Shown in pieces: positions 4,148 to 24,532 of a stretch of DNA of 31,872 nucleotides. Source of the DNA: Methanobacteriota archaeon (GTDB lineage Archaea > Thermoplasmatota > SW-10-69-26 > JACQPN01 > JBQTJL01). The translations under genes and the position numbers were made by a program. Every line of letters starts with the position of its first letter. Within the stretch, counting starts at the first letter, position 1. Below the pieces are notes generated by a model. The model was not told the DNA's origin, made no database searches, and saw nothing but the letters and a program-made list of their open reading frames with translations. The stretch lies in contig JBQTJL010000389.1 of the NCBI GenBank assembly GCA_052387135.1, positions 1-31,872 of the forward strand. The letters run 5' to 3'.

Positions 4148-5422
4148 ATGTTGGTCGGTCGGCGGTCGATCCTGCTCGTGAGCGCGGTTGCCTTCGGAAT
4201 GCTCGCTGTGCCTCCGATGGCGGCGGCTCCGCAGTCCGACGCCGGGGTCCCCGGCGACGCGGGGAACACGTTCGCGACCGGCCGCACCATCGCGCCGAGC
4301 GGGCCCTATTGGGGCACGCTCGACGGATTCCCCAGCGACGCGGACGATTACTACCGGTTCTTCGTCCCGGCGGGCGACTCGGTGAACATCGAGATCCGCG
4401 CGGGACTCGTGACCGGGACTCCGTTCCCCGGCGACGACCACAAGCGGCTCTCGTTCCAGCTTGTGGGCCCGGACGGCGTGCCGCTCGATACGCCGAACAC
4501 GATCAACTCGGACTCGCGCGTGACCCTCGTCTCCGCGCCCGTCTCGGGGACGTACGGGTTCCACGTGACCGACAACCTCGGCATCGGGCACCGGGGCGCC
4601 TACGGATTTTGTTTCGTGCGCTTCGCCGTCCCGTGCCCCGAGTTCGGCACGCGCCCGATCCGGCTCATCGGCGCCCTGCAACACCCGATGGCGGAGATCC
4701 TCCTCGAGGTCCCGCCGCACGGCGACCTCGGGAACGCCGCTGGGCCCACGCGGGACGACTACCTCGCCGCCGCGGTCCGCGGCATCCACCGATGGGAGGC
4801 CGCGATCGATGCCTTTGTCGCCGACCACCCGGACTTCTCCTACCTCTCCGCCCTCAAGATGCACGTCGCGGTCTTCGACGGCCCGGTCCCGGAGCGCGTC
4901 GGCGTCGACATGACCATCCTGTGGATCCCGGCCTCGGGGTCCCAGTTCCGGGGCGTCGCATCGCCCGGGACCGACTACCTCTGGGAGGGCGTCTGTTGGG
5001 AGCCCTTCTCGTGCGGCGTCTATTACGGGAGCGTCGAGCCCCACGCGCACCTTTCGGACGGCCTCGTCGTTCTTTCGCTCCTTGCGAACGCCCCCCGGGC
5101 GGGCCAGCTCGTCCAGGACTACCCGGAAGTGAACGATATCGAGAACGTGGTGATGCACGAGGTCGCGCACGCGTGGGGCCTCGGACATACACAGACTTGG
5201 CACGCCGACACCGGCCCCGACGCGATGAACAGCCCGTACGGCCAGGTCTTCGGCGACGGCGACCCCTTGGGATTCGGCCCCGAGCGGACGGCGGTCTCCT
5301 GCATCTCGAGCGTGGACCTCTACGGCCTTGCGTACATCTTCCGATGGCTCCCGTCGGGCGTGTTCGCGCGGCCGGACGTCCCCGAGGTCACGGCGCCGTT
5401 TGCGTACGAGCTCTACTGCTGA
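4148..5422 (+). CDS. Secreted metzincin (matrixin-like) zinc metallopeptidase with an N-terminal PPC-like beta domain
   Basis: HEVAHAWGLGH (HExxHxxGxxH) followed by the Met-turn DAMNSPY. N-terminal signal MLVGRRSILLVSAVAFG. PPC-like segment GTLDGFPSDADDYYRFFV. Start set at ATG 4148. Confidence 0.85.
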   Translation: MLVGRRSILLVSAVAFGMLAVPPMAAAPQSDAGVPGDAGNTFATGRTIAPSGPYWGTLDGFPSDADDYYRFFVPAGDSVNIEIRAGLVTGTPFPGDDHKRLSFQLVGPDGVPLDTPNTINSDSRVTLVSAPVSGTYGFHVTDNLGIGHRGAYGFCFVRFAVPCPEFGTRPIRLIGALQHPMAEILLEVPPHGDLGNAAGPTRDDYLAAAVRGIHRWEAAIDAFVADHPDFSYLSALKMHVAVFDGPVPERVGVDMTILWIPASGSQFRGVASPGTDYLWEGVCWEPFSCGVYYGSVEPHAHLSDGLVVLSLLANAPRAGQLVQDYPEVNDIENVVMHEVAHAWGLGHTQTWHADTGPDAMNSPYGQVFGDGDPLGFGPERTAVSCISSVDLYGLAYIFRWLPSGVFARPDVPEVTAPFAYELYC

Positions 5423-5444
5423 CGAGCGCAAGCGCAAGGGCCGC
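5421..5444 (+). repeat. GCGCAA hexamer array (copy 2) directly after the peptidase stop
   Basis: gacga-gcgcaa-gcgcaa-gggccgc. It shares gacgagcgc and the exact 13-mer gcgcaagggccgc with 3976-4017. Confidence 0.75.
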
Positions 5445-5461
5445 GGCCCGCCGCGAGCCCG

Positions 5462-6654: not shown

Positions 6655-7632
6655 CTAGCGCCGCTGCGCAAGAAGCACGCCGAAGAGGATCACGAGGCCG
6701 CCTGCGAGCGCAAGCGGGGCCGGTCGCTCGTCGAGGAGCAGGAACCCCCAGACGACGCCGAAGACGGGGTTGAGGAACACGAACGTCATCGTCTCGGTCG
6801 GTGTCAGGCGGCGGAGCGCGTCGTTGAACCCGACGTAGCCGAAGACCGTCGCCGCAAGCCCGAGGAACAGGATGGCCGCCACGCCGTCGCGCGAAAGCGA
6901 TGCCGCACGCTCGGCCGTTCCCGTGGCGAGGATCGGAAGGATCATCAGGGTCCCGACGAGCGTCGCGGACGCGGTGAACGGGAGGGCCCCGTGCCGCATC
7001 ACGAGCGGCTTGGACAGGACGGACGATAGGCCCCACCCGATCGGCGCAAGCAGCGCGACGAACACCCAGGCGCCATAGGACACGTCGAGGCCGGCGTGCT
7101 CGCCGACGACGAGGAGGACGACGCCCGCCATCGCGAGCGACATCCCGGCGAGGCGCCCGATCGCGAAGCGTTCGCCGAGAACAAGGCCCGAGAAGAGGCC
7201 CGTCCAGAGCGGCCCGGTGGCGACGACGAGCGCCGCGATCCCGGCCGAGATGCGGGTCTCTCCCGCGTTCAACGCGAGGTGGTACCCGCCGACCGACAAG
7301 AACGAGACGAAGAGGAAGGTCGGCCATTCGGCCCTCGCGAGCTTCGGCGCCCCGGCCGCATAGAGCATTACCGCAAGGAACGGCGCCGCGACGAGGAAGC
7401 GAAGCAGCGTGAGGTCGAGCGCGGTCACGTCCCGGAGCGCGACCTTGATCGCGGTGAAGGCTCCGCTCCAGGTGAGCACGACTCCGAGCATCACTAGTTT
7501 CGCTTGGAAATGGCCGGAGATGGGTAGAGATGGACGGATATGGGTCTCCGATTCACCGTCCTTCATTTCCGCCATTTCCGCCTCATATCCCGCTTCATAT
7601 CCCGCTTCATATCCCGCTTCATATCCCGTCAT
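6655..7632 (-). CDS. EamA/DMT family transporter (copy 1) with an N-terminal GYEA repeat extension
   Basis: About 10 hydrophobic segments in two EamA repeats (TWSGAFTAIK, LLRFLVA, IAALVVATGPLW, NPVFGVVWG). ATG 7632 overlaps the upstream EamA stop (ATGA); alternative starts at 7575, 7566 and 7491. Confidence 0.88.
   Translation of the reverse strand: MTGYEAGYEAGYEAGYEAEMAEMKDGESETHIRPSLPISGHFQAKLVMLGVVLTWSGAFTAIKVALRDVTALDLTLLRFLVAAPFLAVMLYAAGAPKLARAEWPTFLFVSFLSVGGYHLALNAGETRISAGIAALVVATGPLWTGLFSGLVLGERFAIGRLAGMSLAMAGVVLLVVGEHAGLDVSYGAWVFVALLAPIGWGLSSVLSKPLVMRHGALPFTASATLVGTLMILPILATGTAERAASLSRDGVAAILFLGLAATVFGYVGFNDALRRLTPTETMTFVFLNPVFGVVWGFLLLDERPAPLALAGGLVILFGVLLAQRR
7583..7630 (+). repeat. 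12-bp tandem repeat (TCATATCCCGCT)x4
   Basis: Three perfect units plus one near-perfect unit. Encodes (GYEA)n in the EamA copy 1 N-terminus; preceded by the 9-bp duplicate catttccgc at 7564-7581. Confidence 0.93.
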
Positions 7633-23205: not shown

Positions 23206-23244
23206 CGAGCCGGAAGCGAGGCGCACGACACGTCTTGCGCCTTC

Positions 23245-23286
23245 CCTCGTACCTCGTTCCTTGTACCTCGTTCCTCGTGTCTCGTG
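23245..23286 (+). repeat. Tandem heptamer array (CCTCGTN)x6, intergenic
   Basis: cctcgta, cctcgtt, ccttgta, cctcgtt, cctcgtg, tctcgtg; same unit as 2512-2581. Confidence 0.88.
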
Positions 23287-23417
23287 CCCCATTCCAGTCC
23301 CCGCTTGCGCGAGAACCGCGGCCCCGGCCGTCACGATTCCGGCAAGCGTTGGTGGGGTCCGGGAAACTATTTGTATCACGAACCGACAAGCTAGGGGCGC
23401 GCCGAGGTCGAGAGTGC

Positions 23418-23846
23418 GTGTTCCGTGAAGTAAGTTCGATCGTGGTCCGTGCGTCCAAAGAGCGGGTGCACGCGCTCCTTATGGACCCCCAGAACCTCCC
23501 CAAGATCCACCCGTGGGAGACCGCGGTCGAGTCGGTCGAAGGCGGAAGCGGCCACTGGACGATCGGGGTCGCCGGCGCGCGGTACCTTCAGCCGCGCCGG
23601 GCCGTGGTCGAGCTCAAAGACCGCGGCGACGAGGTCCTGCTCCAGACGGTGAACGACCCTTCGGGGCGCGAGGAGGAGCGGTTCCTCCTTCGCGAGACGC
23701 CCGATGGGACCCGCCTCATCCTCACGCGCCACGAAGAGCCCTCCGGGATCCTCGGCACGATGACCGAGGCGTTCCTCTGGGTGCGGCCGCACCTTACGGT
23801 CGACTCGGAGCTCCGCAAGATCAAAGAGATGGCGGAGCGGCCGTAG
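23418..23846 (+). CDS. SRPBCC/START-fold (polyketide cyclase/CoxG-like) protein
   Basis: SIVVRASKERVHALLMDPQNLPKIHPW and the C-terminal helix VDSELRKIKEMAE. GTG 23418 has GAGGT about 10 nt upstream (142 aa). Confidence 0.8.
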   Translation: MFREVSSIVVRASKERVHALLMDPQNLPKIHPWETAVESVEGGSGHWTIGVAGARYLQPRRAVVELKDRGDEVLLQTVNDPSGREEERFLLRETPDGTRLILTRHEEPSGILGTMTEAFLWVRPHLTVDSELRKIKEMAERP

Positions 23847-23856
23847 GCGCGGCGTG

Positions 23857-24088
23857 TGCAGGCCGCGTGCGATCGTTCCTGTTCATGCAGGCAGCGTGCC
23901 ACCACTCCTGTTCATGCAGGCAGCGTGCGAGCACTCCTGTTCGTGCAGGCAGCGATGCAGTGGCTCCTGTACGTTGCATGGGAGCGTCCGGCGGCCGGCG
24001 ATGCACAGGAGCTGAGCCCGCTCCCGGCAACACACAGGAACTGAGCCCGCTCCCGGCAACGCACAGGAGAAGAGCCCGCGGCCGTGCA
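23857..24088. repeat. 232-bp composite inverted element: two opposing arrays of 29-bp repeats with imperfect terminal inverted repeats (MITE/BIME-like)
   Basis: Left units tcctgttcatgcaggcagcgtgc-N6 at 23877, 23906 and 23935 (partial copies at 23856 and 23965). Right units (g/a)cacagga(g/a)ctgagcccgctcccggcaac at 24003 and 24032, partial at 24061. Ends tgcaggccgcg / cgcggccgtgca. Confidence 0.85.
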
Positions 24089-24091
24089 GCG

Positions 24092-24532
24092 TCAACGGAC
24101 GATCGTCACGGTCCGATCCGCGTACCGCATCACCTTTTCCGCGACGGAGCCGATGAAGAACGGCTGCTTCTTCTCGTAGGACTTGAACCCGAGCACGATC
24201 TCGTCGCAGGCCTTCTCTTTCGCCGCGGCGAGGATCTCGTCCGCGGGGTCGCCCTGCCGGATGACGACGCTCGTATGCTCCGGCATCTTCGCCGAAAGGT
24301 CCGCGATCGCGTCCTCGATCGAGCGCTTCGCGTTCTCCTTGAACGAGCCCCCCTTCGCGACGCGTGAGAGGTCGATCCCCGGAAGCAGCATCTCCATGAA
24401 CTTCTTGTCCGCAAGCTGCGAGGGCACCACGTTCACGACGACGATCTCGGACGCCGAGCGGGCGGTCGCCGCGTACTCGAGCGCCTTCCGCGAGGCATCT
24501 GATCCGTCGAACCCGACGAGGATCCGCGCCAT
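24092..24532 (-). CDS. uspA: Universal stress protein
   Basis: RILVGFDGSDAS, GDPADEIL, IVLG, IGSVAEKVMRYA-VTIVR. Confidence 0.93.
   Translation of the reverse strand: MARILVGFDGSDASRKALEYAATARSASEIVVVNVVPSQLADKKFMEMLLPGIDLSRVAKGGSFKENAKRSIEDAIADLSAKMPEHTSVVIRQGDPADEILAAAKEKACDEIVLGFKSYEKKQPFFIGSVAEKVMRYADRTVTIVR

Follow-up and report, generated by a model that had tools for sequence, protein, structure and literature searches.

The window analyzed in this study is a stretch of 31,872 nucleotides that corresponds to contig C389 of an archaeal genome assembly (2.77 Mb in 463 contigs, 69% G+C, 89% completeness). The archaeal origin of the source genome is based on the presence of TrpE-arch, NcsA, a beta-CASP RNase and TATA-like promoters. 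The locus described here is a convergent gene pair whose intergenic spacer is occupied by a repeat element. The upstream gene encodes an SRPBCC protein and terminates with a TAG stop codon at positions 23844-23846; its start codon is uncertain. The downstream gene encodes a universal stress protein of the UspA family, and its TGA stop codon reads TCA on the + strand at positions 24092-24094. The 245 nt between the two stop codons are filled by an element of 232 bases. A preliminary description of this DNA had named both convergent neighbours and the filled gap, and the open reading frames and Pfam matches confirmed this arrangement. The following features were assigned:

23235..23846, + strand: SRPBCC / Polyketide_cyc2 gene, upstream convergent neighbour (open reading frame list; Pfam PF10604, E 1.2e-6)
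23857..23973, + strand: left arm of the element, four head-to-tail units (Tandem Repeats Finder, repeat families D1 and D3, cores, nhmmer)
23857-23885, 23886-23914, 23915-23943 and 23944-23973, + strand: the individual left-arm units, each closing with (C/T)TCCTGT followed by NCRT
23974..24000, no strand: centre, a coreless degenerate unit at which the arms meet (sequence; inverted pair I3)
24001..24088, - strand: right arm of the element, three inverted units (Tandem Repeats Finder, repeat family D2, nhmmer on the - strand, unit alignment)
24092..24532, - strand: UspA-family universal stress protein gene, downstream convergent neighbour (Pfam PF00582, E 1.1e-22)

The division of the element into two opposing arrays of approximately 29-nt units was verified by several methods. 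Tandem Repeats Finder reported a left array at 23857-23954 (period 29, 3.4 copies, score 147) and a right array at 24004-24079 (period 29, 2.6 copies, score 124), and a repeat search placed the element in registers of 29-30-nt steps and recovered the previously claimed inverted pairs in the middle and towards the ends. Cores were located on the + strand at 23876 (TTCCTGT), 23905, 23934 and 23964 and on the - strand at 24005, 24034 and 24063 (ACAGGAG or ACAGGAA if read on the + strand). These positions correct the unit numbers of the preliminary description: the left arm, which had been counted as three full and two partial units, consists of four cored units plus a partial unit that lacks the core and makes up the centre; the right arm contains three cored units, the outermost of which is degenerate, rather than two full units and one partial unit. 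The sequence CTCCTGTWCR was observed three times in the window, compared to 0.13 occurrences expected from shuffles, and this count was matched by 0 of 100 shuffles. The centre of the element carries the short palindrome CCGGCGGCCGG at 23988-23998 and is spanned by inverted pair I3 (23963-23977 with 23998-24012, 80% complementary); a homologous centre is conserved in a copy of the element on contig C219. The unit alignment revealed that the arms belong to different sub-types (GCA..TGC on the left, GCC..GGC on the right). The proposed palindromic build is thus correct with respect to the opposed arms, but these are only approximately 65% alike and form a poor hairpin. Accordingly, the RNA fold of the entire element, which had been suggested as a check, is weak with z values of only -1.6 for the + strand and -2.2 for the - strand, and a reading as a long hairpin or cruciform was rejected, given the different sub-types of the arms. 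Two other short tandem repeats were noted in the window, a 12-nt unit CCGCTTCATATC with 4.2 copies at 97% identity (7578-7628) and a 7/21-nt array of the TCCCTCG type with approximately 10 copies (2510-2583).

BLAST searches with the element against its own genome identified 13 places at E<=0.001, the best of which are 81-82% identical over 130-150 nt, and the element is hence not a single-copy feature. A profile HMM of the unit (nhmmer) yielded 76 unit matches in 29 clusters, 19 of which contain multiple units, and a sequence-only covariance model detected 106 matches, compared to background singletons in related genomes. Seven of the 19 multi-unit clusters are located within 150 nt of a contig end (5% expected). 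As repeats break short-read assemblies, the true copy number is probably higher, and the unit counts of individual arrays may be mis-assembled in this fragmented metagenome-type assembly. Two sub-families could be distinguished. The sub-family of the window type (C389, C219, C298, C304 and C103) is built from GCA..TGC and GCC..GGC units, and the second one, termed b (C17, C200, C459, C43, C172, C333, C12, C171 and C112), contains a central hairpin GAACGACGACG...CGTCGTCGTTC and accessory hairpin modules of the GGCGCC type. The element in the window and the reverse complement of the C219 copy are 81-85% identical across both arms and the centre, and the succession of their arm types is identical; the copies of sub-family b have the centre and the ordered right-arm units in common at 84-93% identity. 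The sharing of arm sub-types and centres between loci shows that composites were copied as wholes to many unrelated loci and that the number of units was then changed locally.

The architecture of these copies follows strict rules in some respects and is variable in others. All 12 two-armed clusters show + units followed by - units, and the opposite order was found in none. Within an arm, the cores are spaced by 29 nt (22 cases), 30 nt (6 cases) or 31 nt (6 cases); larger spacings of 53-61 nt and one of 82 nt mostly equal about twice the period and are consistent with a degenerate core in between. The number of units per arm varies from 1 to 6 or more and the length of the element from approximately 60 to more than 260 nt. 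Alignments of the copies with their flanks showed that the outer units decay and that the ends are ragged, and distinct end modules next to the variable tandem units were not seen in the aligned copies. Neither sharp termini nor a target-site duplication or any recurrent direct repeat could be found in these alignments. The tetranucleotide gcgt, noted before as approximately flanking the element in the window, is unconvincing as a target-site duplication: it equals the NCGT tail that closes every unit, it is offset by one base on the left, on the right it abuts the UspA stop codon with an overlap of one base, and no flanking duplication was seen at the other copies. The divergence between copies is about 7-16%, with the exception of one match of 93 nt at 99% identity, in which a contig end is involved. 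This match apart, the sequence divergence gives no sign of recent activity.

Mosaics of the element with other modules were detected on contigs C346, C12 and C171. Accessory modules of approximately 24 nt consist of GGGCGGAGC followed by a GGCGCC-TTC/TAC-GGCGCC hairpin or a GGGGCC/GGCCCC variant and are interleaved with CTCCTGT units (C12:14640-14700, C171:1731-1820, C200, C459, C43, C47, C333 and C237). In contrast to the core units, these accessory modules show compensating changes in their stems. At C346:2363-2850, a composite of approximately 480 nt lies between convergent genes and comprises one + unit, a GGCGCC hairpin module, an insert of about 330 nt and - units. The insert has no Rfam match, and a piece of approximately 50 nt from it recurs at at least 14 other loci, thereby representing another dispersed module. 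The same genome also harbors a second family of opposed arrays, in which the left arm consists of 14-nt units with the core GGAATGAG and the right arm carries the inverted core CTCATYCC (C320:5300-5640, C103:8560-8740, C317:7530-7700, and further sites on C315, C357 and C453). Short GC hairpins closed by GAA or GCAA loops, among them the GCGAAGC type, lie in between; their stems vary and stay complementary. The arrays start just past a TGA and end beside a TCA, the apparent stop codons of the flanking genes.

The unit alignment allowed us to define the conserved part of the repeat. The invariant columns are TCC.GT within the CTCCTGT core; C..T.C.T around it, a GG..AG patch upstream and the NCGT that follows are conserved as well. 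A unit hairpin with covariation, suspected by eye from the pairs GCA/TGC, GCC/GGC, GCGC/GCGC and GATAGC/GCTATC, was discarded after it failed three controls. The best-stem lengths of the units were close to those of shuffled sequences, an exchange of unit halves between loci hardly affected the folding energy (-7.09 kcal/mol for native and -6.93 kcal/mol for chimeric units; 71 of 300 permutations equalled or surpassed the native value), and the units folded no better than their shuffles (mean z +0.11). A pairing of GGAG with CTCC was also rejected; both partners are conserved, so that covariation is uninformative, and the core is base-paired in only 41% of native units compared to 60% of shuffled ones. 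We infer that the conserved part of the unit is a primary-sequence motif (CTCCTGT-NCGT and GG..AG) that recurs at a fixed period, rather than a hairpin. Searches of Rfam returned only chance-level matches (at most 17 bits, compared to gathering scores of 50-160) and none in the composite C346 copy. The initial impression that this is not a described archaeal element therefore stands as far as Rfam and the literature searched are concerned.

Two other classes of repetitive DNA were tried and rejected. A CRISPR array does not fit, as the units abut at 29-31 nt without spacers and no k-mer array with a spacing of 50-90 nt was present genome-wide. Integron attC sites carry the consensus sequences RYYYAAC (R'') and GTTRRRY (R') at the ends of an imperfect palindrome and occur in cassette arrays. 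The GTTGCCG and CGGCAAC junctions of the element misfit these GTTRRRY and RYYYAAC sequences, and its copies are dispersed singly without forming cassette arrays. An iteron-like protein-binding array, which had been offered as one possible function, is unlikely in the sense of a replication origin, given approximately 20-30 chromosomal loci at gene 3' ends.

The distribution of the repeat was followed beyond the source genome, which is the sole member of its family in the genome collection. No signal above scattered background was obtained in 60 relatives from within its order, class and phylum by BLAST, by a strict three-core pattern or by the covariance model. A pattern scan of the genome collection returned, among the matches listed, only unrelated DNA without any match to the unit HMM. 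A first metagenome pattern scan gave 0 matches, and a second one gave weak matches only, in which the core is common because the pattern demands it. One metagenome contig (Ga0265316_10000674, L203, 69% G+C) contains at 5370-5460 an intergenic tandem repeat of three 29-nt units ending in CTCCTGTTCGT. This unit forms a perfect 8-bp hairpin GGAGGGCC-ACC-GGCCCTCC followed by TGTTCGT, and its likeness to the family is imposed by the search pattern. The nearest UspA homologues among 5.8 billion proteins are only approximately 52% identical, which marks the lineage as essentially unsampled. The SRPBCC gene has no match within the order, and the neighbours of FtsY and gyrB are not syntenic with those in order-level relatives.

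The search for a mobilizing enzyme covered the rve, DDE_Tnp_1, Y1, TnpB and tyrosine integrase families. Neither Y1/RAYT (PF01797) nor TnpB (PF01385) had a match in the 89%-complete genome, while the control genomes were positive for both. Six rve matches, six DDE_Tnp_1 matches and two tyrosine integrases are present, and no core array was found within 4 kb of any of these genes. A transposase with termini matching those of the element, which had been named as a check, was accordingly not found among them. The earlier proposal of a non-autonomous mobile element is therefore upheld in part: dispersed copies beside unrelated genes, a variable number of units and absence from the relatives searched agree with it, and two of its expected parts, a target-site duplication and an autonomous copy or transposase with the same ends, were not detected.

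The reading that accounts best for these observations, and that is held to be probable with modest confidence, is that of a lineage-specific, non-coding mosaic "foldback" family, which would have been spread by a sequence-specific DNA-binding enzyme while slippage altered the length of its arrays. In this model, the mobile entity would be a foldback composite of a left head-to-tail array of 29-31-nt units, a central palindrome or hairpin and an inverted right array. A putative trans-acting DNA-binding enzyme would recognize the repeated motif on both arms, in analogy to transposases that act at repeated subterminal sites, and slippage or unequal recombination would change the number of units. 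If the element influences termination or mRNA stability, this would be of secondary nature. As the primary-sequence motif stays in phase on mirrored arms and a unit hairpin is not supported, recognition by an enzyme would be the most economical mechanism.

Among known repeat systems, REP/BIME and BOX elements resemble the family in lifestyle, although it belongs to neither of them, and foldback transposons come closest to it in form. MITEs have a constant length, sharply defined terminal inverted repeats and target-site duplications, and their genomes contain a related IS; the ends of Tn7/Mu-type transposons contain several oriented transposase-binding sites. The archaeal element resembles these in being small and non-coding, with inverted arms, many copies and repeated oriented motifs in both arms. 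Unlike MITEs, it ranges from about 60 to more than 260 nt with ragged ends, and neither a duplication nor an array at the rve and DDE_Tnp_1 loci was found. The eukaryotic foldback transposons FB of Drosophila, Galileo and Tetris (PMC3573991, PMC4079207) share with it inverted arms of short tandem subrepeats, a variable arm length and little or no sequence between the arms in non-autonomous copies. As foldback transposons are kilobase-scale elements with defined termini, target-site duplications and known transposase superfamilies, this likeness is one of form only. BOX elements of Streptococcus pneumoniae have the composition boxA-(boxB)n-boxC, with distinct end modules whose ends are complementary, and fold tightly as RNA (PMC3049150). 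Like BOX, the archaeal family is an interspersed composite with a tandem module of variable copy number, whose length changes by gain or loss of modules, which is tolerated mainly downstream of coding sequences and which has neither coding capacity nor a known dedicated transposase. While BOX contains one array in one orientation, units of one type make up both opposed arrays of the archaeal composite, which folds weakly and in which distinct end modules were not seen.

The genomic positions of the copies bear directly on the question of whether the arrays serve the host. Gene calls were obtained with a crude codon-usage caller (more than 1,700 ORFs), and every cluster falls between called genes. 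The flanking genes are unrelated housekeeping genes, including those for GyrB, ribosomal protein L11, alanyl-tRNA synthetase, FtsY, beta-CASP RNase and phosphoglycerate mutase, as well as an M50 peptidase, a MazG-like protein, an Lrp/AsnC protein and others. The loci for which both neighbours are known comprise about five convergent, six tandem and one divergent arrangement. At all 15 boundaries that face a gene 3' end (15/15), the outermost core is located 15-31 nt past the stop codon, which puts the start of the outermost unit no more than a few bases from the stop. Towards gene starts, at least 50 nt are left free, including TATA-like boxes. Copies survive only in dispensable DNA, away from promoters and immediately behind stop codons. 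Transcription of either convergent gene in the window would run into sense-oriented units, and the element probably forms the 3' UTRs of both.

It was further asked whether the repeat itself provides stop codons or truncates genes, an idea that finds only weak support for UspA and fails for FtsY and GyrB. The UspA protein ends in ...TVTIVR and its five nearest homologues (48-53% identical) extend 7-15 residues further (PP...). A non-conserved tail may have been clipped by the repeat, and with homologues that are only about 50% identical the evidence for this truncation is weak. The C-termini of FtsY (C200 copy) and GyrB (C459 copy) coincide with those of order-level relatives, which places the start of these arrays after the native stop codons.

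The strict stop adjacency and the fixed polarity of the arms would fit a selected host function as well. The arrays could represent a module of polar, sequence-specific sites, either for a protein on DNA or for binding at the RNA level, that serves as a 3'-end device working in both directions. It might terminate transcription, in a roadblock-type or factor-dependent manner, stabilize 3' UTRs or insulate convergent genes topologically from each other, with dispersal being secondary. Besides the positions described above, several observations speak for this explanation. Genes that enter the element from either side meet sense units first, and sense cores are present within 80 nt downstream of 20 stop codons compared to 3 stop codons followed by antisense cores. 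The element fills the whole convergent spacer, the region lacks any other terminator-like signal, and the reduced base-pairing of the core relative to shuffled units would suit an accessible binding site. A run of at least four T residues occurs within 80 nt after the stop codon in approximately 9% of called genes (4% background), and oligo-T terminators seem to be rare in this archaeon with 69% G+C. However, the genome contains only about 20-30 such loci among its more than 1,700 ORFs, the repeat was not found in the 60 relatives, the copies C74, C17 and C304 lie beside promoters or in a divergent spacer, outer units are degenerate and a palindromic build by itself entails that sense units are met first. 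The position after stop codons can also be explained without a function. A third of the convergent and tandem spacers of this genome are 30 nt or shorter, and short 3' spacers together with selection against hits in genes or promoters would leave copies next to stops, an argument that was made in the same way for the position of pneumococcal repeats (PMC3049150). A selected host module is considered unlikely, albeit the likeliest of the alternatives. The related suggestion of a BIME-like bidirectional terminator or RNA stabilizer in the preliminary description holds with regard to the location just 3' of genes, but the hairpin or terminator fold is weak and no T-run is present.

The spread of foldback composites by a DNA-binding enzyme was also weighed against an origin that requires no dedicated enzyme, in which arrays would grow in situ by replication slippage at small palindromes and spread by ectopic recombination or gene conversion. 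Variable unit numbers, ragged ends and missing target-site duplications agree with this, as does the existence of several other modular repeats of the same build in the genome. The copy at gyrB is in line with it as well. The gene gyrA is encoded about 5-55 nt behind gyrB in the six order-level relatives that were examined at this locus, whereas in the source genome gyrB (C459:2562-4700) and gyrA (C48:2876-5500) are located on separate contigs, gyrA has its own TATA-like box and a repeat copy that is situated exactly at the gyrB 3' end marks the synteny break. This explanation has difficulties with the same ordered arm types standing beside unrelated unique genes that offer no common flanks for recombination, and slippage alone does not explain the arrival at new loci. 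It is rated as somewhat less likely than a host module.

A bolder proposal, entertained only tentatively and with still lower confidence, combines spread with function. The opposed arrays might be a new archaeal 3'-end device, namely a set of binding sites for one protein that is polar and portable, is placed directly behind stop codons and spreads as a cassette. Such a device would stop or process transcripts, or block the passage of supercoils or polymerases, in both directions in a genome that nearly lacks oligo-T terminators.

In contrast to the proposed enzyme acting on double arrays of a sequence motif, a true REP/BIME (REPIN) system would be mobilized by RAYT, a Y1 HUH transposase, on single-stranded hairpins. 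REP, BIME and REPIN sequences of Proteobacteria are hairpins of 20-40 nt with a GTAG or CGTC tag, alternating orientation and a cognate Y1 transposase (PMC2817692, PMC3116915, PMC3733652). The archaeal family is similar in being short, GC-rich, non-coding, intergenic and lineage-specific, with many copies that form variable mosaics mostly 3' of genes, and its 29 clusters with 76-106 unit matches are extragenic, clustered mosaics as in REP-type repeats. The accessory GGCGCC and GGGGCC-type hairpin modules of some copies, with their compensating stem changes, also favor a REP/RAYT system. It differs by its 29-31-nt units, the CTCCTGT core, the lack of a supported hairpin and of a detectable Y1 gene, and by units that are arranged head-to-tail within an arm and change orientation just once, at the centre, instead of alternating. 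The GTAG tag is absent from the units and CGTC appears solely as a variant form of the NCGT-N junction. As PF01797 and PF01385 are missing from the 89%-complete genome in searches with positive controls, and tagged REPs were reported from bacterial phyla in a 2013 survey (PMC3733652), mobilization by RAYT is very improbable.

Although seven contigs of this 463-contig metagenome-type assembly end in repeats of the family, the probability that the element is an assembly artefact (an inverted chimera or a collapsed repeat) or a chance low-complexity feature is negligible, as it is internal to a 31.9-kb contig and bordered on either side by unique coding sequence, its arms belong to different sub-types without exact mirror copies, homologous composites exist at many independent loci and the motif count is far above that of shuffles.

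Bacterial REP, BIME, BOX and MITE repeats have been studied extensively and shape mRNA stability, transcription termination, supercoiling and genome rearrangement. To our knowledge, comparable archaeal families have hardly been described, and reports of RAYT, the enzymes responsible for REPs, come from bacteria. The foldback family of this poorly sampled, GC-rich archaeal lineage has a distinct design, consisting of opposed head-to-tail arrays of approximately 29-nt units that are defined by sequence, have a strict polarity and start strictly past stop codons, and it has no known mobilizing enzyme. A practical consequence is that the family fragments the assemblies of the lineage, with 7 of 19 multi-unit clusters ending a contig. 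If a protein partner of these arrays exists, it would represent a new kind of mobilizing enzyme or a new 3'-end factor.
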